This document shows positions 4,516 through 18,960 of a stretch of 19,038 nucleotides of DNA, one piece after another. A program made the position numbers and the translations under genes. Every line of letters starts with the position of its first letter. Within the stretch, counting starts at the first letter, position 1. The notes beneath the pieces are model-generated. The model made no database searches. It worked only from the letters and a program-made list of their open reading frames with translations, and was not told the DNA's origin. The stretch comes from Candidatus Hermodarchaeota archaeon (GTDB lineage Archaea > Asgardarchaeota > Hermodarchaeia > Hermodarchaeales > Hermodarchaeaceae), in assembly GCA_016840065.1 (NCBI GenBank), contig JAEOTB010000100.1:1-19038 (forward strand), read 5' to 3'.

Positions 4516-5433
4516 TCAACCCTTTATTGAACAAACCACTCTTTTGATTTCCTCGTCCTGACAGTTCACTACTATTCCTTCAGAACCGAAAATACGATTC
4601 GAAGCAAATGTTGCAGACGGGAGCTGTAGGGTTGCCATAACCGGAAGGTGATCAGAAGCCAGCGAGGACACGACACGATGCTCATCAACCGTGATACCAT
4701 TGGAGACAAAGACATAGTCGATGCGCTCAGTGGGGTCCCAGGAAGTGCTCGTACAGTTGCCATAACGGCTTCCACCGGGGACAATATCGAAGGTGTCGTT
4801 GAAACGGCTTAGAATGTTTGTCAGAATCCCCTGGTCGGTAGCGTTAGTCGTGTAAGCGTCGATATTGAAGTCACCCGCCCAGATCTTCAATCCAGACACC
4901 GCGTCGATATAGGGGAAGGCTAGTGTTGCCTGCTGAAGTCGACTCGCGGGACTCATCACGGTGAAGTGAACACCAAATACAGTCACGGTATCTGTTCCAA
5001 CATCGATGGTAGCCTTCAGCAGCGTATCAGTCTCTTCAGAACTCGGTAGTATCAATTCCTCGTAATTTATAATCGGATATTTGCTGAGAATGACATCTCC
5101 TTGCCAGGTGCTCTCAGTATCCGTGATGGGGGCAAGATACATGTTCAGCCTTTGGGCTAGCCAGCGAGCCTGATCCACCCACCCAGTCATGACTACGCCC
5201 ATATCGACTTCCTGAAGGACTAGAATGTCAGGATTCCAGGGCTGAATTGTGGCAAGGACTGCTTCTAGGTCTAAGCGGTTGTTTGCTCCAAATCCCTCGT
5301 GTATGTTGTATGTCATTACCTTAAGGCTCGCTCCAGGTTGGGGTGCAACGTTGTAGGTGAGGGCGCACCAGCTTGCTGAGGCGATTAGAGGAATTAGGAT
5401 TATAGCGAGGGCAAAGATGGTCTTCCTGTTCAT
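4516..5433 (-). CDS. Endonuclease/exonuclease/phosphatase (EEP) family protein with N-terminal signal/membrane anchor; Cwh43/PGAP2IP C-terminal-like
   Basis: Complete EEP motif set: VMTYNIH, LQEVD, ILSKYPI, GVHF, AGDFN, RIDYVF, ASDHLPV. Hydrophobic N-terminus. SD GGAGGTG upstream and an ATGA overlap (5430-5433) with the upstream gene. Confidence 0.88.
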   Translation of the reverse strand: MNRKTIFALAIILIPLIASASWCALTYNVAPQPGASLKVMTYNIHEGFGANNRLDLEAVLATIQPWNPDILVLQEVDMGVVMTGWVDQARWLAQRLNMYLAPITDTESTWQGDVILSKYPIINYEELILPSSEETDTLLKATIDVGTDTVTVFGVHFTVMSPASRLQQATLAFPYIDAVSGLKIWAGDFNIDAYTTNATDQGILTNILSRFNDTFDIVPGGSRYGNCTSTSWDPTERIDYVFVSNGITVDEHRVVSSLASDHLPVMATLQLPSATFASNRIFGSEGIVVNCQDEEIKRVVCSIKG

Positions 5434-6701
5434 GATTCAACACCTCCAACTTTGTACGCAGCAGCAGTCGATGTTAGGAGTAAGATAACAGTAGCTGCCA
5501 AGATGAGTGTTGGTGCCTGCCCCTCAAAGATGGCTCCAAGCGACCCAAGGTACGCGTACGCAAACGCAAAGCCAGTCATGAAGCAGAAGAGAAGCAGGAA
5601 TATCATGCTCAGGAAGAAGGACAAGCTGAGTACAGTGAATCTACCCCACCTGAATTGCCGCTGAACTATATACTGGACAAGAATGTAGAGATCAAGGACA
5701 ACAAAGAATTGCGCAACAAGCGCTAGTGCCGCAGAGAACCAGGTTCCAACAATTAACACACATGTTATTGCTGTAACCATAATGATGTTACCGATAAGGA
5801 AGAAAAACCAATTATCCAAAGGCAGCTTCGAAGCCAATGGTGTATAGAAGAGGGCCAGGACAGTCAGAGTGAACACCAATATCATGAGGATGATGAGAAC
5901 TGCAAGCTCCAACAAGGAGTATGTGGGCACAGCCCAGCGCAGCACATTCTGAGGGTTAGCAAGTAAACTCAATTCTAGGAAGAGTACCACACCAATTCCC
6001 AAGGGAATAAAAATACCGCCCAAGCGGGAGGCCGAAATACCGCTTACTCCAAGAACCCTGGGTCGCTTGGATTCACCAACCCGAAATTCCTTCACCATCA
6101 AGGCTAAAACGACGATTACTAAGATTAACTGGGGGATAAGGTAGAGGAAACTTCGGGATACATCATACATCCCATAGAAGGATCGAAAAAGAATATCGTA
6201 TCCAAAGGCAAGCGTAAAACCTCCGATGAAAAGCGCTACTTCGTTTTCCTTGTTGGTTCCAGATTCCCCTGTGATTTGACTCACTATATAAGATGGAAGG
6301 AAGATGGAGTAACAGGCAATTACTAGGGCAGAAAGTAAGAGCTCCACCCCCGAACTCAATCCGAAGCCAGAAGCTCCGAGAGCAGCTTCTAAGTAGCCTC
6401 CGAGGGTTATCGGGAGGATAAAGATTGAGGTCAAGATAGCAGAAATAATCATCAGGCTTCTGTCACTGATTCTCCTCCCAATGATAACCCCGAAGATGGG
6501 CATCAAGAATGCCAACATCGCAAGCAGCGGCAGGTAAGACGAACCAAACCAAATGACGTTCCAAACCGCCATATACATGTTAACCACAAAGGTCCTGAAA
6601 CCTTGAAGGAAGAAGAGAGTCACAAGCAGGGGCACCAGCAGACGAGTCGAAAACTCCTGGAAATCCATATCATCAAAGAGGAAGCTTCCCATGAAAGTCA
6701 C
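5430..6701 (-). CDS. Multipass membrane protein (about 11-12 TM), translationally coupled to the EEP gene
   Basis: 423-aa ORF made almost wholly of hydrophobic segments with one charged loop. Its stop overlaps the EEP start (ATGA). The true start may be ATG 6692, behind GGAGTG. Confidence 0.8.
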   Translation of the reverse strand: MTFMGSFLFDDMDFQEFSTRLLVPLLVTLFFLQGFRTFVVNMYMAVWNVIWFGSSYLPLLAMLAFLMPIFGVIIGRRISDRSLMIISAILTSIFILPITLGGYLEAALGASGFGLSSGVELLLSALVIACYSIFLPSYIVSQITGESGTNKENEVALFIGGFTLAFGYDILFRSFYGMYDVSRSFLYLIPQLILVIVVLALMVKEFRVGESKRPRVLGVSGISASRLGGIFIPLGIGVVLFLELSLLANPQNVLRWAVPTYSLLELAVLIILMILVFTLTVLALFYTPLASKLPLDNWFFFLIGNIIMVTAITCVLIVGTWFSAALALVAQFFVVLDLYILVQYIVQRQFRWGRFTVLSLSFFLSMIFLLLFCFMTGFAFAYAYLGSLGAIFEGQAPTLILAATVILLLTSTAAAYKVGGVES

Positions 6702-8181: not shown

Positions 8182-9933
8182 ATGGCATTTCAAACTATAC
8201 TCGCACACAAACGTCTAGTTGCCGTACTCCTCATCGCCATTATCGTACCAGCAAGTGTTGGCGGCTTCTTTTTGTTCAGCCAAATGGGCGCTCAGAGTAT
8301 GATAAATCAAACAGAAATTGAGGTCACCGAAGTCAAGATCATGGGGACATCATCCTCTACCCTAAGCCTGATGTTGACTCTTTCGGTTCTCAATCCTTCT
8401 CCTTACGTGGTAAATGTGGCTGAGGGGTCATTAGACGTGAATTATGATGGTTCCCTGCTGGGAACCATGGCCTTCCCAGGAACTACGGCAAATCCTGGTG
8501 AAAACGAACTCCAAATCGCCTGTACGTTAACGGTAGCAGCCGCGCGGCAGACTACTTTTACCCAGTTCCTTCAAGACTTCATCACCGATGCAGAACTCAC
8601 ACTGAATGTTGAAGGCTCTCTGTCACTAATGCCTGTCGGGCTAGCTATGGTTCTGGCCATGGCCCTCGACGAAACAGTGACAATGGTAGGGTTTGGAGGA
8701 CTCGCTAGAACGTGGATAACCGAGGTAGAATTCCTTAACTCCACAGTGACCACCATGGGTGTCAGAGTAGACGCGATTCTAGAAAACCCCACAGAGGTAA
8801 GCGTATCCCTCAGTGACATATCAATGGATGTCTTCTATGAAGAAAGCACGATCGGAGATTTTGTCACCGACGACTTTGACCTCGTCCCTGGCAATAACTC
8901 CATTGTAGCCGAAGGTATCCTCGATCCGGATGACGACGCCGCCCTCCAGGACCTAGCGGAATGCTTCCTTGCAGGCGTAGATTGCGACCTAGAAGTGAAT
9001 GTGACCGCGGACTCGATTGTCCCCGGACTTAGCGCTGCACTCACACTAGATGTAACAGTGGATACCGAGATGCCATCCCTAGACCTGAACCCACAAATTG
9101 TTGACTTCGCCCTCGTCGGGGCCACTGACACTGACCTACACGTCGAAGCCAACATCAGCATCACCAACCCCACGGAAATGGACATCACCCTCAACTCGTT
9201 GAATATGTCCCTCTTCTACGGAGGACATGAAATCGGCAATGCCAGCATAGGGAACACACTGATCGAACCCGGAGCCAACCTTGTTGAAGCCGACATCTAC
9301 CTCACCACTGACCATCACCAAGCATCGCTAGAAGCCCTTCTTTCAGAGTACGTCAGCGGAGCCGATGCTACAGTCGGAGTCGAGGGTGAGTTCTCAGGAG
9401 ACCTCGGACTCGTCAGCCTCACTGGAGTCGGTTTCGCCGACACTGCGACACTTGAGGGGCTCGACGAATCACTAATCAAAAGCGTTTCAATTCTCTCCAT
9501 GAGCGTAACAGTAAGTCCACCATTAACCTTCTCATGGTCGGCCACAGCACGAGTGATTGCCTATAACCCTATGCCCTTTGCGATCAACATCACCGCGCTC
9601 GAATATGATGTTCACTACGACGACGCTGATGGTGCTTCTCTTTCAATTGGAGGTATCTATACTTGGTCATTGGCTGCAGTCTATAATAGATTCTTGAAAA
9701 CCATTGACAATGACTACTCATCGAGTCCTATTGAAATCAGCGCAGAGTCGGACTCGCCAAACATTGACCAAGCGATTTCAGACACCATTGAGGAGGATGC
9801 CGTTCGGCTCTACTGTGAATACGTGGTCGACGGTGAACTAATCTGTCACGCCCGCAGCGGTTTAGTCACAATCTCGATAGGACCCTTTAGTGTCACAATC
9901 TCCTTCGAGGTAACAGACATCTCAGTGACCTAG
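8182..9933 (+). CDS. Single-pass membrane protein with about four tandem LEA_2/WHy (DUF3712-like) beta-sandwich domains
   Basis: N-terminal TM (LVAVLLIAIIVPASVGGFFLF). Recurrent motif: hydrophobic strand, NP (LNPS, ENPT, TNPT, YNPM), then x-x-Y-x-G/E-x-x-(L/I)G, then PGxN (PGEN, PGNN, PGAN). Very acidic ectodomain. Confidence 0.75.
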   Translation: MAFQTILAHKRLVAVLLIAIIVPASVGGFFLFSQMGAQSMINQTEIEVTEVKIMGTSSSTLSLMLTLSVLNPSPYVVNVAEGSLDVNYDGSLLGTMAFPGTTANPGENELQIACTLTVAAARQTTFTQFLQDFITDAELTLNVEGSLSLMPVGLAMVLAMALDETVTMVGFGGLARTWITEVEFLNSTVTTMGVRVDAILENPTEVSVSLSDISMDVFYEESTIGDFVTDDFDLVPGNNSIVAEGILDPDDDAALQDLAECFLAGVDCDLEVNVTADSIVPGLSAALTLDVTVDTEMPSLDLNPQIVDFALVGATDTDLHVEANISITNPTEMDITLNSLNMSLFYGGHEIGNASIGNTLIEPGANLVEADIYLTTDHHQASLEALLSEYVSGADATVGVEGEFSGDLGLVSLTGVGFADTATLEGLDESLIKSVSILSMSVTVSPPLTFSWSATARVIAYNPMPFAINITALEYDVHYDDADGASLSIGGIYTWSLAAVYNRFLKTIDNDYSSSPIEISAESDSPNIDQAISDTIEEDAVRLYCEYVVDGELICHARSGLVTISIGPFSVTISFEVTDISVT

Positions 9934-10019: not shown

Positions 10020-12218
10020 TTAAGATGAGAAGAGCAAGAGCTGGCGAGTGGGTGTGGGGGACCGGAGTCGCCGTGCAAGCCGCTGGTAATCCCAGCCAAG
10101 GGTGACGAGAAGGGTTTCAGCCGCTCGTAGCAGGAGCTCCGTGTACTTCTCTTTGTCATACTTTGCCGCCGCTGCTGAGGTGGCGAGGGCGACGCGACGG
10201 TGTGGACGGCGAGCATGGCTCCTCGTATGAACGTAGCTCACACACTGACCGGGACGAAGGTCTTGCCCCTCCTGAATAGCCATCTCTGCTGCGACGGCTT
10301 GGCTGCAGCGCTGGCGGTAGGCATCGGGGCTGCGGCTGATACGGCGCGTCACAGCAAGGTCTGCAGGATCCAAGTCTCCGCTCCGTATCCGCTCAACATA
10401 ATCTGCTATTATGAAGAGCAGCTTGGGGACAAGGCGTTGGAGCTCCTCGGCATCCTCCGCCCCCGCCATACGCGAGAGGAGGTCTAGCTGGAACTCACGA
10501 ATCAGGGGTGGGGTATCGCGTCGGCGGAGCTCAATGCCCCGCACCTTGATGGTGCCGTCCTCTTTTGCTCCGCAGTAGTGGGTTAAGGCTCCGTGAGACT
10601 GTCCCCGGCAGGGCAGGAACATAATCCAACGGTAGCGCCCTTCGAACTCGATGGGCAACCCAATCACTCTTTCGATGATTTCTGAGAGTTTCACGTATTC
10701 CTCGACTGTGGTACCCTCCCTCTGGAGCCAGAGACAATCAACGATTCCGTGCAGCACATTAAAGCCTTTCAGCTCGCAAAGCGCCTTGGTCTGCAGGAGC
10801 GTCTGCCTAGCATAGGCTGTGACACACTCATACGACTCAACCCGACCAAACCGCGCTGCCCTAAAACCTAGATAGCCGAATGAGGTAACTAAGAGCCATT
10901 TGAGGGCTTGCTGCCGTTCCTCATAGTGGGTTTCTTCGTGGCGGTGCTGCTTGTACCAGAGTCTCTTGTTGAGGAGCTGGGCTATGAAGGCGGGGACGAG
11001 GCCAAGGCGCCGACGGCAGAGCCTGTACTCAAGCTCGGGGACGATGGTGGCATCATCGGTGCAGCAGTCACAGAAGAGGCTGTCTGGAGATATGTTGTAG
11101 CGGCGGATGAGCGAGGGGTACATGGAGCTGAAATCTAGCTCTCCCACATCACTAAAGACCCCAACACGGGGGCTGAATGTGTGACCACCGCGGTCAGCAA
11201 TGAGAAGCTTGGTGCCGGTCTTGTAGCGTTCAGCTTGGGCCTTGGTTTCGGGGATGAGTACTCCGCGCTTGAAGGCCTCTCGCATCTGCAACATGTTGAT
11301 TCCGGTGCCCGGGCTGTTGCGGGCAGCGCGTTGCGGAGGGAGACTGGTTAACCGGCTGGCCTCCACCAGCCCCTCAAAGGAGCCGTAAGTCATGTGGCTG
11401 CGGTCAAGGTGCAGGCGGCCCCTAAGGCGGAACGGATGCGGACGATAAAAAACGGGGCCACCATACCTAAAGACAGCACGGCCAGAGGGAGTGGGTCGAC
11501 CTGGCTGGGCGAGAGGAGTCGAGTCCCGGCTCAGCGAGAGCTGGTGGAGGACACCGGTATTTTCAGCGCGGCTTATCAAGGTGGGGATTACTCTTTCATC
11601 CCCCTCTTCGGTGAATATGATGTCAGGGTCCTGCTCGGCGACCCAGCAAGAGAGTGTGAGGGGGTCCTCGGTTAGGAGGTTATCGCCCTCCGAGCTAGAA
11701 GCATAGAAGGTCTCTTCCCCTTCCAGGCGGAGGTCCACTGTGCGGAAGGTGGGAAGGGGGTAGTCGATTGCCCACTGGGAATCAAGAGAGTCAATGCGGG
11801 TGACTCGAAGCCCAGCAGAATCGGTGTGGACCTCCACCTGTTCGAAGGGGTAGTGACGCTGCTCAAGATACCAGAGCTGAGTGACTGGTAGATCACCATT
11901 ATAGAGATGGAATCTGGGAGCCAGGCGGGTCTTTACGTCACGGACAAGGCGGGTAAATTGAGTGCAGCTCGCAGAGGTAACAGCGAGGACCGGGCGGCGA
12001 GGACCACGCAGCCGAAGCCGGTGGAATTCTGGGACAACCTCGGTGACCAAGGGGTGGCTAGCAATTAGATTAGCGTAGTCCTCGAAGCGGACGCCCGGCG
12101 CGTGTAAGTAGAAGCGCGGCTGGTAGGGCAACTGGAGTGGGATTGTCTGGTTGGTTGTGCGGAGCCACAAGGTCAGGTGGTCCTGCTGTGGAGTCACATC
12201 CAATATCCAGCCGCGCAT
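10020..12218 (-). CDS. polB2: Family B DNA polymerase, PolB2 (Dpo2) group
   Basis: Motif A LDFSSMYPS, motif B KWLLVTSFGYLG and motif C altered to HGIVDCLW (vs YGDTDS), plus RGIELRRRDTP and KYDKEKY. The 3'-5' exonuclease motifs are degenerate. These are hallmarks of PolB2. Confidence 0.88.
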   Translation of the reverse strand: MRGWILDVTPQQDHLTLWLRTTNQTIPLQLPYQPRFYLHAPGVRFEDYANLIASHPLVTEVVPEFHRLRLRGPRRPVLAVTSASCTQFTRLVRDVKTRLAPRFHLYNGDLPVTQLWYLEQRHYPFEQVEVHTDSAGLRVTRIDSLDSQWAIDYPLPTFRTVDLRLEGEETFYASSSEGDNLLTEDPLTLSCWVAEQDPDIIFTEEGDERVIPTLISRAENTGVLHQLSLSRDSTPLAQPGRPTPSGRAVFRYGGPVFYRPHPFRLRGRLHLDRSHMTYGSFEGLVEASRLTSLPPQRAARNSPGTGINMLQMREAFKRGVLIPETKAQAERYKTGTKLLIADRGGHTFSPRVGVFSDVGELDFSSMYPSLIRRYNISPDSLFCDCCTDDATIVPELEYRLCRRRLGLVPAFIAQLLNKRLWYKQHRHEETHYEERQQALKWLLVTSFGYLGFRAARFGRVESYECVTAYARQTLLQTKALCELKGFNVLHGIVDCLWLQREGTTVEEYVKLSEIIERVIGLPIEFEGRYRWIMFLPCRGQSHGALTHYCGAKEDGTIKVRGIELRRRDTPPLIREFQLDLLSRMAGAEDAEELQRLVPKLLFIIADYVERIRSGDLDPADLAVTRRISRSPDAYRQRCSQAVAAEMAIQEGQDLRPGQCVSYVHTRSHARRPHRRVALATSAAAAKYDKEKYTELLLRAAETLLVTLGWDYQRLARRLRSPTPTRQLLLFSS

Positions 12219-13054: not shown

Positions 13055-14404
13055 TTAGCCTGATGTGATTTTAGCGGATTCGATGACTAGTGAGGGACTA
13101 ACAACGGATTTCAATACTCTGGTGTCTGCGCCTATGCGCTGCACCCTCTGAAGCAGGTCCCGCATATTGATTCCGATAAGTGTGTTTCTTAACGGATGCT
13201 GGATTTCTCCACCCTTAATGAAGAAACCCTCCATGACCATCGCGCTCAAATCGCCTGTTGTCATGTTGGGTCGATCACCGGTGTAGCGGCAGAGGACTCC
13301 CGTATCAATCTCAGATACTAGGTCCTCTAGTTTGCCTTTACCGGGTCTCACTACAAAGTTTGATGTTGCGATTGCAGGTAGGCTAGTATAGGAGGCACGG
13401 CTCGCGTTACCCGTGCTTTCTACACCTTCCTTGTTCGCTGAGTAGGAATTATGGAGAAAGTTCTTCAGAACACCGGAAGCGATGACAGGTGTTTTCTGGG
13501 ATGGAAATCCTTCCCCGTCGAATGGTCGGGACTTGATGCCATTAGGCATGAGGGCATTATCGGTGATTTTGAGTGCCTTAGAAGCAATAGGTTTGCCTAA
13601 CAGGCCTGTGAGATAGGAACGACCAAACTGTACCTCCTCTGCGTTCAAAGCCCCGGCAAATCCTCCTCCAAGGACCACAGCTGCAGCCAGTGGCGACAGG
13701 ATAACGGGGAACTCACCATTCTCACAGGTCTTCGTACCCAAAGCCTTGATCGTGTTCTCTGCGGCAGTCCTCCCAACCCATTCGGGGTCAATGCCCTTCA
13801 GGGCACGGGAATCCTGAAACTCGAAACTCGAGGACTGCCCATCCTCCTCCTTAACCGTCACATAAGACGAAAGGTTCACAATTGTGCTCTCTGAGGTACC
13901 TGAGACACCGAGAGAGTTTGTGATTGCACCAACACCTGAGGCGACAGTGAGTTGTGCCTCAACTATGCCTCTTCTCCCAACGACCACCTCTTTGCTGGCA
14001 TCCACGGACCTTAGAATCAGTTCTGCTGCTTCTTCAGCTGTCAGTTCTTTGATCGCTGAATCGAAAGTACCTTTGACCTTTGGATAGGTTCCGCTGAAGG
14101 AGGGAAGACTGGCAAAACTCGGGTCTGGCAAAGAAACTTTGGCCAGTTCCACAGAACTCTTCGCGGTGGCAAGGATGTCATCTTTGAGGATTGTAGTTAC
14201 ATAGGAATAGCCAACACTCTTTCCGACCACAGAACGAATCCCGCAGCCAGCATCAACCTTTTCACTGGCACTCTTGATAGCGCCCTTCTCAACTTCGATG
14301 GAGAAAACCCGAGAGGAAGCCAGGAAAGCCTCCGCCTGGTCGGCACCAAGCTTCACCGCTTCCTTAACAGCAATCTCTCCCAATTCAAGTAACTTGTCCT
14401 TCAT
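13055..14404 (-). CDS. pmbA: TldE/PmbA family protein
   Basis: GADQAEAF, GCGIR, SRPFDGEG, STGNASR and GFFIKGGEI, with no HExxxH. Start revised to ATG 14404 (MKDKLL): SD GGAGGT upstream, 1 nt after the tldD stop. The ORF-track start at 14548 lies inside tldD. Confidence 0.9.
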   Translation of the reverse strand: MKDKLLELGEIAVKEAVKLGADQAEAFLASSRVFSIEVEKGAIKSASEKVDAGCGIRSVVGKSVGYSYVTTILKDDILATAKSSVELAKVSLPDPSFASLPSFSGTYPKVKGTFDSAIKELTAEEAAELILRSVDASKEVVVGRRGIVEAQLTVASGVGAITNSLGVSGTSESTIVNLSSYVTVKEEDGQSSSFEFQDSRALKGIDPEWVGRTAAENTIKALGTKTCENGEFPVILSPLAAAVVLGGGFAGALNAEEVQFGRSYLTGLLGKPIASKALKITDNALMPNGIKSRPFDGEGFPSQKTPVIASGVLKNFLHNSYSANKEGVESTGNASRASYTSLPAIATSNFVVRPGKGKLEDLVSEIDTGVLCRYTGDRPNMTTGDLSAMVMEGFFIKGGEIQHPLRNTLIGINMRDLLQRVQRIGADTRVLKSVVSPSLVIESAKITSG

Positions 14405-14405
14405 C

Positions 14406-15791
14406 TTACATACCTCCAACTGGGACATCCCTTGCTCTGGCATGCGGACCACCCGACATGTCTGGGAGACTCTGACCAGCTTTCCCACAGGTTCCCGAGT
14501 CCATCTCGAAATCCTTGCAGATCGCATCAACCTTGGGTAGGAACTCAAGGATTAGCCCAGCAAGAGAACAGTCCCTAACCATTTGACTCTTCTCGCCTTT
14601 CTCGATTAGGTACCCATGACTAGCTTGAAACATGAACTGGCCCCGAGCACTGTTTGTGTAGCCATAATTGAACGAACATAGGAGTACACCCTCCTTAGTG
14701 TCTGCGATCAGCTCATCGAGATCCCAGTCTTGTGGCTCCATGAAGGTGTTACTCATCCTGGGGAGTGGAGGGAACCGGAAGGACTGGGCCCGTCCTGCTC
14801 CGTTAAGCTCGTACCCTAGGCGGCTGGAGGTTTCAAGGTTATGAAGCAGCTCGTTTAGGATCCCATCCTTCACGAGGTAACGTTTCCTTGCCCTTGTGCC
14901 CTCCCAGTCATATTCAAAGCTACCTCTCATTCCTTCCATGGTAGGGTCATCAACAATGCTCAGGTTCTCGGGTCCCACCGTCTTGCCAAACTTACCTTCA
15001 AGGCAAGTAGTGCCCGCCGTCCAATTGTCAGCCTCTGCAGCGTGTCCAAAGGCTTCATGGCACATCACTCCGTTGAGTATTGGGTCCATTATCACGTCAT
15101 ATTTGCCTCCCTTGATGGCAATTGAGGAGAGGAGTTCGATTGCGCGTTTTGCCGCCCTAGTTCCAAGTACTTGGCTTCGCTCTTCCTCCATGAGTTCATA
15201 GCCTCCTCTTCCACCAACGCTCAGAAAGGCTCTCTGCCGGTTGGCCCCTTCTTTGGCTGTGACAACAGAGAAAATACGGGGCACGAGGTGCACCATCCAC
15301 ACACTGGTTCCCAAGGAATTCGCAATATAGAGGTCCGTCTTGGTATCCGCATAGATTGTTCTGGTATTCACAACCCGCTTATCATGAGCGCGAGCCTGAT
15401 CGTCGATATGCTTGGTAAAGGCTATTTTCTCCTCAGCGGTCACGTCCTCCAAAGGGCGTTTAACCCTGAGCCTCACCTTGTATTCATACGAAGGAGCTTC
15501 AATGTCAAATCGTTCGGCTACCCGGTCCTTCGTTGCAAGAGCCATCTTGGCTACGGATTCAGCTGTAGTCCGCATCCCCTTCGCAGTTAGGTCAGTGGTC
15601 TGTGCAAACGCCCATGCCCCATCGACGAAGGCACGAATTCCAGCGCCTTTCGAGTGGGAACCAATTGACTGCTTAGTGATTCCATCCGTGATTTCAAAGC
15701 GGGTATCTCGGGTGTCCTCGATTCTAATATCTGCAAAACTGACACCTTGCCTGAGCGCCGCCTCGATAGCGATTCCTGCTAAATCTTCCAA
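14406..15791 (-). CDS. tldD: TldD family metalloprotease
   Basis: FADIR, GAGIRAF, metal motif HEAFGHAAEAD, DDPT...YDWEG, PRMSNT and C-terminal CGKAGQ...GGP. TTG start preceded by GGTGAG. Confidence 0.92.
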   Translation of the reverse strand: MEDLAGIAIEAALRQGVSFADIRIEDTRDTRFEITDGITKQSIGSHSKGAGIRAFVDGAWAFAQTTDLTAKGMRTTAESVAKMALATKDRVAERFDIEAPSYEYKVRLRVKRPLEDVTAEEKIAFTKHIDDQARAHDKRVVNTRTIYADTKTDLYIANSLGTSVWMVHLVPRIFSVVTAKEGANRQRAFLSVGGRGGYELMEEERSQVLGTRAAKRAIELLSSIAIKGGKYDVIMDPILNGVMCHEAFGHAAEADNWTAGTTCLEGKFGKTVGPENLSIVDDPTMEGMRGSFEYDWEGTRARKRYLVKDGILNELLHNLETSSRLGYELNGAGRAQSFRFPPLPRMSNTFMEPQDWDLDELIADTKEGVLLCSFNYGYTNSARGQFMFQASHGYLIEKGEKSQMVRDCSLAGLILEFLPKVDAICKDFEMDSGTCGKAGQSLPDMSGGPHARARDVPVGGM

Positions 15792-15811: not shown

Positions 15812-16216
15812 CTAACTATCCTCTTCTTCTGGCTGTTCTTCAGTCCTTCCATACATCCTCTGCATCAGGGCACGCTGCTCTTCCCTCTTCCGTTTAAGTC
15901 GGCTGTCAATCTCTCTCCTGAGGAAAACATCGGTAGTGAAGTAGGCGATGGCAAATACGCAGCCAAAACCGATAACAACATACAGAAGGATAACACCGAG
16001 TAACCAGGCAGACCAGGCGATACCCCCTAGCCCAATACTTCGCCAATAGGTGCTGATAACAAGAAACAAAGCGCCGACGATAATCATCGCGGAGAAGAAC
16101 AAGATGATATCCCGTTTCCGTGGGTTCCAGGGATCAGCATCCCGTGTATCACTGCTACTATACCGCCGCCTGGAATACGTTTGTGTCTTCTGAAATGATA
16201 CTTGCATCTGGTCCAC
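15812..16216 (-). CDS. Hypothetical 2-TM membrane protein with Arg-rich N-terminus and charged C-terminal helix (RING-less, adjacent to the RING array)
   Basis: Two clear hydrophobic helices. Ends 20 nt before tldD. CTTAAA TATA-like element about 31-36 nt upstream of GTG 16216. Confidence 0.7.
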   Translation of the reverse strand: MDQMQVSFQKTQTYSRRRYSSSDTRDADPWNPRKRDIILFFSAMIIVGALFLVISTYWRSIGLGGIAWSAWLLGVILLYVVIGFGCVFAIAYFTTDVFLRREIDSRLKRKREEQRALMQRMYGRTEEQPEEEDS

Positions 16217-16332
16217 GCCCTAGTAACTACATCGGAACAACATCGGTTTAAGGGATAACTCTTATGGAAGAGGTAAAAGAGAGTTTAGCACAGCACCTTT
16301 CTCTTATACTCCTAGATGCGGAAATTCTTACT

Positions 16333-16776
16333 TCAGACTCCACGTAGCTTTCGACGACACATGGGGCAAACCCCCTTTGACTTAAGCCACTCCTCCAAAT
16401 GACTCCTATGAGCCTGTCCTCCACAATGGGGGCAAGATAGGATTAGTTCATCAGCATCAATCAGCCGAGCGCAAACCATGCAGGAACCTCCTCTACCACT
16501 ACTGACGGCTGGAACCGCCTTGGGCGAAAACAACCTCAAGGGCTCCACTCCCCCTTGTCCCCGCCCAACGAATATGTAACAAACTAATGAAACGAAAAAA
16601 GGAACCGCTGCCCCAACCAAGGCGACGAATAGCTGGAGTAAATCGATGCTTTTCGCAAGCATCAGATACAAGGCTGAAACAAAGATGAGGATCCAAATAA
16701 ACACTGACAAGCAAAGACAAACCGGAATCAAACTATTGATACCAGCATAATTAGCCCGCGGTTCTCGTCTTACCAT
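16333..16776 (-). CDS. 2-TM membrane protein with C-terminal RING-type zinc finger (putative E3 ligase)
   Basis: CMVC-x12-CPHC-x4-H-x2-H-LEEWL-x5-CPMCR. Two N-terminal TMs, SD GGGTGA and an upstream BRE/TATA GAAAGTATTTAA. Confidence 0.85.
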   Translation of the reverse strand: MVRREPRANYAGINSLIPVCLCLSVFIWILIFVSALYLMLAKSIDLLQLFVALVGAAVPFFVSLVCYIFVGRGQGGVEPLRLFSPKAVPAVSSGRGGSCMVCARLIDADELILSCPHCGGQAHRSHLEEWLKSKGVCPMCRRKLRGV

Positions 16777-16806
16777 CGTGATTCACCCTACCTGGAAAAG
16801 ACGTGG

Positions 16807-16818
16807 TTAAATACTTTC
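16807..16818 (-). promoter_or_regulatory. BRE/TATA-like promoter of the RING gene 16333-16776
   Basis: GAAAG-TATTTAA on the minus strand, about 31-42 nt upstream of ATG 16776. Confidence 0.5.
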
Positions 16819-16849
16819 ATAGAAACACCAGCTGAGAAGACACTCAGGG

Positions 16850-17248
16850 TTATTCAATCAGTGTACCCCGGCACATCGGGCATGCCATCTTTTTCTTAAG
16901 CCAGTTTAAGAGGTGGTTTTTGTGGGCTTGGCTCCGACAGTACGGACAGACTAAGATTGGCTCGCCCTCTTTCACAGTGCGGCGGCACACCATGTAGGGT
17001 TCAGGCTGCGCCGGTCGGGACTCTCGCCATTACTCGGTTGACTTCATATAGGCTGTTGTAATAAGAACTACAACAACCAAAGTGATGCTCCCTCCTATGA
17101 CCAATAGAAAATTATCACTAAAAAAGCCAATGAACAAGATCACCATGAGTATTGAAAACAACGTACAAAGCACCACAAATTCACATGGTGTGATTTTTCT
17201 ATTCGTTCCTCGCCACGTTCCTAGCCCCAAAATCTTCCAACCTAACAT
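16850..17248 (-). pseudogene. Disrupted TM-RING paralogue (in-frame TAA at 17032-17030, first Zn-ligand Cys changed to Tyr)
   Basis: The 2-TM ORF 17248-17030 continues in frame after TAA as WRESRPAQPEPYMVCRRTVKEGEPILVCPYCRSQAHKNHLLNWLKKKMACPMCRGTLIE*, with the stop at 16852-16850. TAC (16996-16994) replaces the TGC of the paralogues. Confidence 0.8.
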
Positions 17249-17438
17249 CGAAATAACATTCGCTTTAAAACCATAGCTCCAAACCTAATAGAACAGATAC
17301 TACAAGGAAATAAAAACTTTGCCGTAATACTCACCGCCGAGTTTCTACTTCTCTTTCTGTTCCATGTCAAGACGGCGTTCCGTACCTCGGAAGAACCTTT
17401 ACTGGATTCCTTCAAGTTCTTATCTTGACAAAATCGCT

Positions 17439-18002
17439 TCACCTAAGTTTTTGTCGGCAAATCGGACAAATCACGTGCGTCTCTAACCAATCTAGGAGGT
17501 GGTCCTTGTGAGCCTGACCCTGGCAATGCGGGCAGACCAACATCAGACTCCCCTCCACAATCGGGTGACGACACACCATGCAGGGCTCGCCCTTCCCATC
17601 ACTAACAAATTCCTGCACAGAGTTAACACGATGCCCTGTTGTCACAGAGCTCTCTGTTCTAGAAGGAATTGCGGTTGTGTCATCTTTCTGTAGCATTTCT
17701 TGTAAAATTCTTCTTTGCCTTCTGATTATCTCGGGTTCAACTAGGGGTAGTGAAGGTATGGTCTCTGTTCTAGAACGGACAGCGGTTGTGTCATCTTTCT
17801 GTAGCATTTCTTGTAAAATTCTTCTTTGCCTTCTGATTATCTCAGGTTCAACAAGGGGCAGCGAAGGTATGGATTCCATAGTGGTTCTCCTAAATACGTC
17901 TCTTTTCTTTCTTCGATCACTGCAAATAGTTTGGACAACCCAAATCCAACCCACACCTAGAAGGAAGAACCCCGCCATCATAATAACGAGGTACTCGATC
18001 AT
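17439..18002 (-). CDS. 1-TM membrane protein with internal 37-aa duplication and C-terminal RING-type zinc finger (putative E3 ligase)
   Basis: N-terminal TM followed by RRKKR. CMVC-x12-CPHC-x4-H-x2-H-LLDWL-x5-CPICR. SD GGAGG. Confidence 0.85.
   Translation of the reverse strand: MIEYLVIMMAGFFLLGVGWIWVVQTICSDRRKKRDVFRRTTMESIPSLPLVEPEIIRRQRRILQEMLQKDDTTAVRSRTETIPSLPLVEPEIIRRQRRILQEMLQKDDTTAIPSRTESSVTTGHRVNSVQEFVSDGKGEPCMVCRHPIVEGSLMLVCPHCQGQAHKDHLLDWLETHVICPICRQKLR
17651..17872. repeat. Tandem direct repeat, 2 x 111 bp, in frame (37 aa)
   Basis: Copies 17651-17761 and 17762-17872 have 8 mismatches in 111 bp by manual alignment. Confidence 0.95.
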
Positions 18003-18069
18003 CAGAATAAGTCCTCCATACTTCTCTCACACAACCAATCCTACAAAACCATTCTAAACCTAACTACTC

Positions 18070-18086
18070 TAAAGATTTAATCTTTA
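18070..18086. promoter_or_regulatory. 17-bp palindrome TAAAGATT-T-AATCTTTA in the spacer between two RING genes
   Basis: Perfect 8-bp arms with a 1-nt spacer, overlapping a TTAAAT TATA-like element on the minus strand. Confidence 0.35.
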
Positions 18087-18122
18087 CTAGCTACCTTTCC
18101 GTTCAGGGCTTCTTGTATATCC

Positions 18123-18671
18123 TCAACCAAGTTTTCGTCGACATATCGGGCAAATCCTCTTTTCCTTTAGCCAATCTAAAAGATGACTTTTATGGGCCTG
18201 GCTATGGCAGTAAAGACAGATGAGGATGGTATCCCCTTTCTCAATTGGATGGCGACACACCATGCAGGACTCACTTGTGCCATCGCTTATGGTCTCCTGA
18301 GCCCTTATTTCTCGAACCCTTGAAATCCTATGAGTTTCAGGTACATGCCTTCTGCGTCTAATACGAGTTATCTCTACTTGCCCTTCGGTAGCCATTCTTC
18401 TGGGTCTCGAGGGCTCTTTAACCCGAAGCCCTATTGAAAGGAGAAGGATTGTGCAAAAGGATGCCCACATTATAATTAGGGCTATTACCGCATAAAACTG
18501 AATATAGAGTTCTTCTATAGTGATAGGATAGTACAATCTTGGTCCAAATATTACTGGCACAAGAAACCAAGTCGAAATGATACTGATACACAAAAAACAG
18601 AAATTAAAAATAACACAGGGGACGGCGTTTCGATCGGAACGGTTGTTCTCCAATGTGCGTCTACTTGACAT
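18123..18671 (-). CDS. 2-TM membrane protein with C-terminal RING-type zinc finger (putative E3 ligase)
   Basis: Two TMs, an Arg-rich linker and CMVC-x12-CLYC-x4-H-x2-H-LLDWL-x5-CPICR. Confidence 0.85.
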   Translation of the reverse strand: MSSRRTLENNRSDRNAVPCVIFNFCFLCISIISTWFLVPVIFGPRLYYPITIEELYIQFYAVIALIIMWASFCTILLLSIGLRVKEPSRPRRMATEGQVEITRIRRRRHVPETHRISRVREIRAQETISDGTSESCMVCRHPIEKGDTILICLYCHSQAHKSHLLDWLKEKRICPICRRKLG

Positions 18672-18708
18672 ATACCATATCCCTATTCTACAGATGAGAC
18701 ACTAATCA

Positions 18709-18960
18709 TTAATTCGAGGATTTAAGCTTGCCTTGTCGCAACCTTGCCCTCTGATGGATCACTAGTACTATCGCGATGACCATAGGTATCGAGCTAACGC
18801 CCACCGTTAAGGGAATGTAAGGAATATTCGATGGGTCCCACAGAAGCCAGGTCACAGCAATCAGGATGAAGAATGCAAAGAGAATGACAGAGAAGCACAG
18901 ACAGGTCGTCAGGCAGCAACCTTCAGCTCGATCTGGATAGCTCCGTCTCCTTATCTGCAT
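18709..18960 (-). CDS. Small 2-TM membrane protein, probable RING-less paralogue of the array
   Basis: RRR-containing N-terminus, then TM1 with CLCFSV (compare CLCLSV in 16333-16776), TM2 and a short basic tail. No RING remnant in the 37 nt before the next gene. Confidence 0.65.
   Translation of the reverse strand: MQIRRRSYPDRAEGCCLTTCLCFSVILFAFFILIAVTWLLWDPSNIPYIPLTVGVSSIPMVIAIVLVIHQRARLRQGKLKSSN

Follow-up and report, generated by a model that had tools for sequence, protein, structure and literature searches.

A tandem array of putative membrane-anchored RING-type E3 ligase genes in a Hermodarchaeota genome

Genes and layout of the array

Contig C101 (JAEOTB010000100.1) of the Candidatus Hermodarchaeota assembly GCA_016840065.1 (2.59 Mb, 131 contigs, 84% complete) carries near one end a group of small genes whose products join transmembrane (TM) segments to a RING-like zinc finger. 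The stretch analysed, hereafter the window, is the entire 19-kb contig (19,038 nucleotides). The open reading frame (ORF) listing and hydropathy place six small membrane genes (g1 to g6) in one orientation on the minus strand at 15812-18960. An earlier reading of the same letters made without database searches (the sequence-only reading) had taken this stretch for an array of paralogous, putative membrane-bound E3 ubiquitin ligases; its description of six co-oriented genes, four with the same finger (three intact and one broken), agrees with the ORFs, the hydropathy and the spacing of the finger. An Asgard host, which it had presumed, is borne out by the closest relatives of the TldD genes in the window, found at 87-88% identity in Hermodarchaeota metagenome-assembled genomes.

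The four finger genes lie side by side on the minus strand. g2 (16333-16776) encodes 147 residues forming a 2-TM hairpin followed by a C-terminal RING (finger at 16357-16482), and g5 (18123-18671) encodes 182 residues in which a basic linker joins a 2-TM hairpin to a RING (finger at 18141-18266). g4 (17439-18002, 187 residues) possesses a single N-terminal TM segment, a linker that bears a repeat, and a RING (finger at 17457-17582). The remaining gene, g3 (16850-17248), is a broken TM-RING gene with its 2-TM part at 17030-17248 and its finger at 16871-16996. The spacing C-x2-C-x12-C-x2-C-x4-H-x2-H-x10-C-x2-C is exact in the fingers of all four genes, and the mutual similarity of the N-termini of these RING genes is not significant. 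Such an array is not a product of chance, since six-frame ORFs of the whole 2.59-Mb genome hold no more than 26 instances of the motif, three of them within 2.4 kb here, next to a broken fourth copy.

Counts of lysine and arginine are 3-14 in the tails and 0-1 in the loops between TM segments; in g4 there are none before the TM segment and 10 after it. This positive-inside pattern predicts a cytoplasmic location for the two tails of each hairpin protein and for the part of g4 C-terminal to its TM segment, so that every finger would lie in the cytoplasm, as the sequence-only reading had proposed. A single-sequence AlphaFold2 (AF2) model of g5 comprises two helices (residues 4-46 and 52-84) and the RING, joined by a linker (90-127) whose predicted local distance difference test (pLDDT) score is below 50.

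In g3, an in-frame TAA (17030-17032) closes the 2-TM part and the finger follows downstream in the same frame, with the Cys of ligand 1 replaced by Tyr (TAC, 16994-16996). It is a pseudogene with two point lesions, which before breaking was probably a TM-RING ligase gene. A mini-intron of the tRNA type with a bulge-helix-bulge (BHB) motif was considered as the cause of the break and rejected, as the folding is no better than that of shuffled sequences (z = 0.57); excision would also be unable to restore ligand 1, because the Tyr codon lies immediately 5' of the codons for MVC. In the linker of g4 there is a tandem duplication (17651-17872, minus strand; 111 bp, 2.0 copies by Tandem Repeats Finder) that encodes a repeated linker segment of 37 residues; 103 of the 111 bases are identical between the copies, and the duplication is recent.

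The finger and the ubiquitin genes of the host

The finger was compared with Pfam profiles under their gathering cut-offs (27.3 bits for zf-RING_2, PF13639; 24 bits for PHD, PF00628). The scores of g2 (27.8 bits), g5 (29.2 bits) and the finger fragment of g3 (27.4 bits) are at or above the zf-RING_2 cut-off, and a profile search over the frames of the genome gave 31.2 bits for g5 and 30.6 bits for g2. The PHD alternative was rejected on sequence grounds, as its scores are 12.1-13.2 bits (E = 0.1-0.2) from an alignment confined to the first half of the PHD model. A search of the PDB with a profile of 24 fingers from the host genome placed RING-H2 E3 ligases on top, led by EL5 (5e-10) and followed by Arkadia, RNF24, RNF165, RNF4, RNF126, Hrd1, RLIM, RNF38, gp78, ZNRF3 and RNF13. 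An AF2 model of the finger built on the alignment of the same 24 fingers (pLDDT 89) comprises strands at 21-23 and 30-32 and a helix at 33-42; the top 50 Foldseek matches of this model are all RING or U-box domains, with TM-scores of 0.7-0.8 (EL5 0.78) and root-mean-square deviations of 1.1-2.5 Å. The top 50 matches of an independent aligner (VIA) are likewise all RING or U-box, with EL5 the best (Z 7.7 over 54 residues). PHD folds are absent from the rows listed by Foldseek and by VIA-align, an absence from a list that in itself leaves a PHD fold possible. With a domain of just 54 residues the E-values and Z-scores stay modest, and it is the uniformity of the matches that counts. By profile and by model, the finger is a RING-fold domain, and by its Pfam score it is not a PHD; the choice between the two that the sequence-only reading had left to be checked falls on RING in Pfam, PDB profile, Foldseek and the second aligner.

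Across the 24 paralogues, the eight ligands are invariant or nearly so, and their spacing predicts two interleaved zinc sites. The positions that contact the ubiquitin-conjugating enzyme (E2) and the linchpin position are kept in all four window copies, as CMVC, the helix Trp, CP[MI]C and an Arg after the last Cys; the Trp, the CPxC proline and the Arg had already been picked out by the sequence-only reading and the alignment upholds all three. In Caldiarchaeum, the srfp protein is an active E3 in vitro, and the mutations I30Q, W58A and R69A impair the cascade (PMC5654768). The equivalents of srfp Ile30, Trp58 and Arg69 in the four window copies are Val, Trp and Arg.

As that reading had also stated, no gene for ubiquitin, ubiquitin-activating enzyme (E1) or E2 is found within the 19-kb window. 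They are located on contig C69 of the same genome, where genes running in one direction encode an 81-residue RING (G000:C69:44480-44725, G000 being the host genome), a 78-residue ubiquitin with a Gly-Gly end, a 153-residue E2 (UQ_con, 117 bits) and a 359-residue E1. Near this operon lie a second gene with the UQ_con fold (UEV/E2-like), the ESCRT-II gene Vps25, Vps4 and two Snf7 genes, and the genome as a whole holds ESCRT-I, ESCRT-II and ESCRT-III genes together with Vps4. Two JAB proteins are encoded in other parts of the genome, and the second of them adjoins one of four ThiF-family E1-like genes. The genome search suggested earlier for ubiquitin, E1, E2, JAMM and ESCRT genes returned every one of these components. 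Neither a non-RING fold nor a genome without E2 and ubiquitin, the computational outcomes that the sequence-only reading had named as speaking against it, was found.

The window fingers share 36-48% identity with the C69 operon RING, as well as its ligand pattern and spacing, and by this similarity they are paralogous to it. The host E2 retains the HPN motif, the catalytic Cys, the loop-4 PY and the loop-7 PS, and a profile search of the host genome found no full UQ_con E2 beyond the C69 copy. In Helarchaeia, a cascade of E1, E2 and RING has been reconstituted, and the operon RING binds UEV-Vps23 directly and can ubiquitylate it in vitro (bioRxiv 10.1101/2023.07.25.550441). Asgard ubiquitin binds UEV/ESCRT-I (PMC9192718), and ubiquitylated substrates have been proposed to recruit ESCRT-I by Hatano et al., whose survey did not extend to RING ligases. 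A prediction of the complex between the host E2, the g5 RING and two zinc ions scored 0.01, below the mark and with the controls not run, and it speaks neither for nor against binding.

Family expansion, turnover and neighbouring genes

The array is a single locus of a large family. The host genome contains 26 copies of the motif in ORFs and 30-35 matches to the hidden Markov model (HMM) of the family; copy numbers are 10-21 in genomes of the same genus, 3-7 in the sister genus, 0-7 in other Asgard genomes and 29 in one unrelated genome. The sequence-only reading had spoken of an expanded family and had proposed copy number in relatives as a check, and the expansion is confirmed by the 26-35 copies in the host against 3-7 in the sister genus. 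TM segments are predicted in about 18 of the 26 host copies, many of which consist of a signal-like N-terminal TM segment, a large outer domain, a second TM segment and the RING. Half of the copies (13 of 26) are found in five tandem arrays, and for 14 of 26 the nearest contig end is no more than 1.5 kb away, where 15% would be expected (binomial p ~5e-6, a value to be read with the fact that copies in an array are not independent); examples are C5:764-3499, C5:23256-26446, C106:3618-5196 and C56:881-2765. This excess at contig ends makes the host copy number a lower bound: RING arrays appear to break the assembly, and the true number is probably higher. The window array may itself run on beyond the end of its contig.

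In a library of 1.84 billion proteins, 764 representatives match the family at 1e-10 or better, and among the best 149 of these 764 at least one TM segment is predicted in 62% and the finger is C-terminal in 87%. A tree of the 24 fingers (56 columns) has no well-supported branches; g3, g4 and g5 fall loosely with copies from contigs C106 and C113, and the window label is clustered on the tree. Neighbouring genes at G000:C30:22379-24130 encode two single-TM proteins with what look like two RING-like fingers apiece, the second being seen as extra BLAST segments at residues 109-171 besides the C-terminal one.

The N-terminal parts of these proteins change fast. No relative matching g5 N-terminal of residue 57 is present among 18 genomes of the family, and a word-based search with full-length g5 returned as its sole match a 99%-identical protein of 182 residues. 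g2 has one near-full-length relative only, in the same-genus genome G003 (contig C309, 40% identity over residues 25-146), which contains an in-frame TAG. DNA comparison within the genus leaves 16.3-18.7 kb unmatched, and the flanks match at 68-79%. By these comparisons, the N-terminal modules are without orthologues even in the genus, with g2 as one partial exception, and turnover is fast. Additionally, in-frame TAG or TAA codons interrupt other paralogues (G002:C196:1282-1557, G003:C309:3227-3595 and G000:C24:9687-9845), and stops in several paralogues suggest that pseudogenes are frequent in the RING family. On the other hand, the finger is conserved: between the window paralogues, the non-synonymous distance (dN) is 0.26-0.45, the synonymous distance (dS) is saturated and g2, g4 and g5 have lost no ligand, a combination which argues that the finger is maintained by purifying selection. 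The description of a diversifying family in the sequence-only reading thus stands as regards the fast N-terminal turnover, seen in loss of similarity, pseudogenes and internal duplication; the novelty that it implied was set too high, since the array is a single locus in a large family, of which the operon member has already been assayed in vitro.

The two outer genes of the group differ from the other four. g1 (15812-16216, minus strand) encodes 134 residues with TM segments at 37-55 and 72-90, an Arg-rich N-tail, a charged C-terminal tail and no finger; g6 (18709-18960, minus strand) encodes 83 residues with 2 TM segments, also without a finger, and it starts 78 bp short of the contig end. 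Orthologues of g1 adjoin TldD in all three same-genus genomes, with 63-67% amino acid identity and dN/dS of 0.10-0.17; it has no Pfam match at the cut-off and no paralogue in the host genome. g6 possesses an orthologue in G003 with 53% amino acid identity and dN/dS of 0.27. The possibility that g1 and g6 are RING-less paralogues was rejected because neither is similar to any member of the RING family, and by the same comparisons they are separate, genus-specific orphan genes under purifying selection. The paralogous array of the sequence-only reading therefore holds for the four finger genes and not for g1 and g6. In G003, the gene order is TldD, g1, g6, a 116-residue TM-RING protein and a protein with an ectodomain, a TM segment and a RING; g1 and g6 are adjacent there, with no counterpart of g2-g5 between them. 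In G002, of the same genus, a RING copy with an in-frame TAG adjoins g1. In two species, TM-RING genes lie between g1 and g6 or next to them (g1 and g6 at 15812-16216 and 18709-18960 of the window, and at L026:958-1353 and 1483-1713).

Next to g1, a pair of TldD/PmbA metallopeptidase genes occupies 13055-14548 and 14406-15791 (minus strand); taken from its listed TTG start, the downstream gene would share 143 bp with its upstream neighbour, which makes a more internal true start probable. A link between the array and this adjacent pair was considered and dropped, as no RING lies within 5 kb of TldD at 20 loci from other Asgard genomes or from other archaea. At 10020-12218 (minus strand), in a stretch with a GC content of 0.56-0.59 against 0.47 for the genome, lies a paralogue of family-B DNA polymerases that has 66-85% identity across the archaeal family; in the related genomes G008 and G012 an in-frame insert of about 1.6 kb, a probable intein, interrupts this paralogue after residue 445. 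A 583-residue protein encoded at 8182-9933 (plus strand) contains DUF3712 and LEA_2 domains, two families that are mostly eukaryotic. At 5430-6701 (minus strand) there is an ORF of 423 residues without a Pfam match at 1e-5, whose overlap of 4 bp with the start of the downstream Exo_endo_phos gene suggests an operon.

Interpretation and comparison with known systems

Taking fold, residues and topology together, g2, g4 and g5 are probably membrane-anchored RING E3 ligases of the srfp type that would use the single clear E2 of the host, with g3 as a dead copy. By sequence comparison, the array is best read as a hotspot within a lineage-specific family under birth-and-death evolution, and the family shows the signs of that process: tandem duplication, replacement of N-terminal modules, internal repeats and pseudogenes. 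In the proposed mechanism, the TM hairpin (in g4 the single N-terminal TM segment) would anchor the protein in the cytoplasmic membrane, and the flexible basic linker would offer the C-terminal cross-brace RING to the cytoplasm. For binding the ubiquitin-charged E2 of the C69 operon, the RING would use the helix Trp, the CPxC proline and the Val that lies between ligands 1 and 2, and the Arg after the last Cys would lock E2~ubiquitin in the closed state. Ubiquitin could then be transferred onto the ligase itself or onto lysines of neighbouring proteins in or close to the membrane, and the tagged proteins could be read by the UEV and ESCRT genes beside the ubiquitin operon. We infer zinc binding, E2 binding, ligase activity and the choice of targets by the TM modules from sequence. 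That these modules choose substrates, as in MARCH and ATL proteins, is attractive by analogy; they may only localise the finger. A bolder proposal is that species-specific TM modules would single out particular membrane proteins, whether native to the cell or encoded by viruses and mobile elements, to be tagged with ubiquitin and removed through ESCRT, making the array part of a rapidly diversifying, repertoire-like set of E3 ligases and a prokaryotic forerunner of ATL/MARCH-type control. We regard this as rather unlikely; if true, it would supply the missing writer of the Asgard ubiquitin-ESCRT pathway.

Several observations weigh against the reading as membrane-anchored ligases. E3 activity in vitro is on record for operon RINGs and for none of the membrane-anchored members, a single clear E2 would have to serve about 30 RINGs (a ratio that is normal in eukaryotes), and no functional link joins the array to its neighbours in the window. 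The zf-RING_2 score of g4 is 22.0 bits, under the cut-off, although its match to the family profile has E = 2e-23. The ligand set is non-canonical: in the HMM alignment to EL5, the His after ligand 3 is missing and a Cys stands three residues upstream instead, so that site 2 consists of two C-x2-C knuckles where canonical RING-H2 has C-x-H, and the geometry of E2 docking could therefore differ. The same shift, with an extra Cys named 'C3B', exists in the Caldiarchaeum srfp (Hennell James et al., PMC5654768), and prokaryotic RINGs tend towards C4HC3 according to a review (PMC11354881). Finally, the highly variable N-terminal modules and the frequent pseudogenes raise the possibility that some copies have no function and are drifting.

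This last point, carried further, leads to the view that the array is mostly evolutionary debris, in which young RING duplicates are drifting and g3 is the first to be visibly broken. The stop and the lost ligand of g3, the in-frame stops in the paralogues on G002:C196, G003:C309 and G000:C24, the N-terminal modules without orthologues in the genus and the unmatched DNA between alignable flanks would all fit such a history, yet with dS saturated the eight ligands and the E2-contact residues remain intact in g2, g4 and g5, which is unexpected without selection, and their ORFs, 147-187 codons long, remain uninterrupted and keep TM segments and positive-inside charges; we consider it quite improbable. 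A RING fold that serves as a docking module without ligase activity, either as a tether for ESCRT-I/UEV or another partner or as a decoy that sequesters E2, would account for the non-canonical ligand set, for fold matches that include non-E3 contexts (the zinc tails of GATOR2 and IFT proteins, and alpha-COP) and for the direct binding of UEV-Vps23 by the Helarchaeia operon RING (bioRxiv 10.1101/2023.07.25.550441). This is somewhat easier to entertain than debris and still unlikely, given that the top matches in sequence and fold are active RING-H2 E3s, that the three residues on which srfp activity depends are kept in every copy (PMC5654768), and that the linchpin Arg, for which no role is known outside the activation of E2~ubiquitin, is kept as well. 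Least probable of all, to the point of being a marginal option, is that the fingers act as E3-like adaptors for another ubiquitin-like kit, for which the ThiF/JAB cluster on contig C84 would be a candidate in place of the C69 operon: the four ThiF-family E1-like genes, one with the second JAB adjacent, make such a kit conceivable, but the C69 operon RING is itself a paralogue of the window fingers, and a single full UQ_con E2 was found.

If the window genes are indeed membrane-anchored ligases, they would bear on how membrane cargo is marked in the Asgard ubiquitin-ESCRT system; small proteins made of a TM hairpin and a RING are the simplest candidates for this step, and those of the window are short enough for expression and assay. 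No description of membrane-anchored RING families in Asgard archaea was found in the literature searched, which excluded the work of Burroughs, Iyer and Aravind (2011) on prokaryotic RINGs, possibly covering related architectures. A further point of interest is what lies behind the strong lineage-specific expansion and turnover. The architecture and the best matches (EL5/ATL, RNF24, RNF13 and Hrd1) suggest that membrane-anchored RING ligases predate eukaryotes.

Among known systems, the archaeal srfp proteins encoded in operons (Caldiarchaeum subterraneum, Helarchaeia and the host copy on C69) share with the window fingers the C4H2C2 ligands with the 'C3B' Cys, the Val or Ile, the Trp, the CPxC and the linchpin Arg. 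They differ in being soluble proteins of about 80-100 residues encoded beside ubiquitin, E2 and E1, whereas the window proteins have 147-187 residues, 1-2 TM segments, long linkers and fast-changing N-termini, and are encoded in a tandem array far from the ubiquitin genes. ATL ligases of plants form a multigene family with tandem copies and carry a GLD motif before the RING; no such motif is present in any window linker. With EL5 of this family (PDB 1IYM) and with RNF24 (PDB 2EP4), which are the best PDB profile and fold matches of the window finger, the window proteins have in common the N-terminal TM anchor or anchors, the basic linker and, at the C-terminus, a RING-H2-like finger that has Trp and CPxCR. 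Both of these are canonical C3H2C3 with C-x-H-x2-H-x2-C, in contrast to C-x2-C-x4-H-x2-H in the window. The RING-CH proteins of the MARCH family and viral K3-K5 are similarly small, with a TM hairpin and a cytoplasmic RING variant of the C4HC3 type, and they select membrane proteins through TM contacts, which is a functional analogy. Their RING-CH is N-terminal to the hairpin and has the spacing C-x2-C-x10-45-C-x-C-x7-H-x2-C, unlike that of the window, and the finger profile matched K3 (1VYX) weakly (E = 0.005). By sequence and domain order, the window proteins best resemble two systems at once: their finger goes with the archaeal srfp RINGs, and their architecture appears nearest to that of the small eukaryotic TM-RING-H2 ligases.

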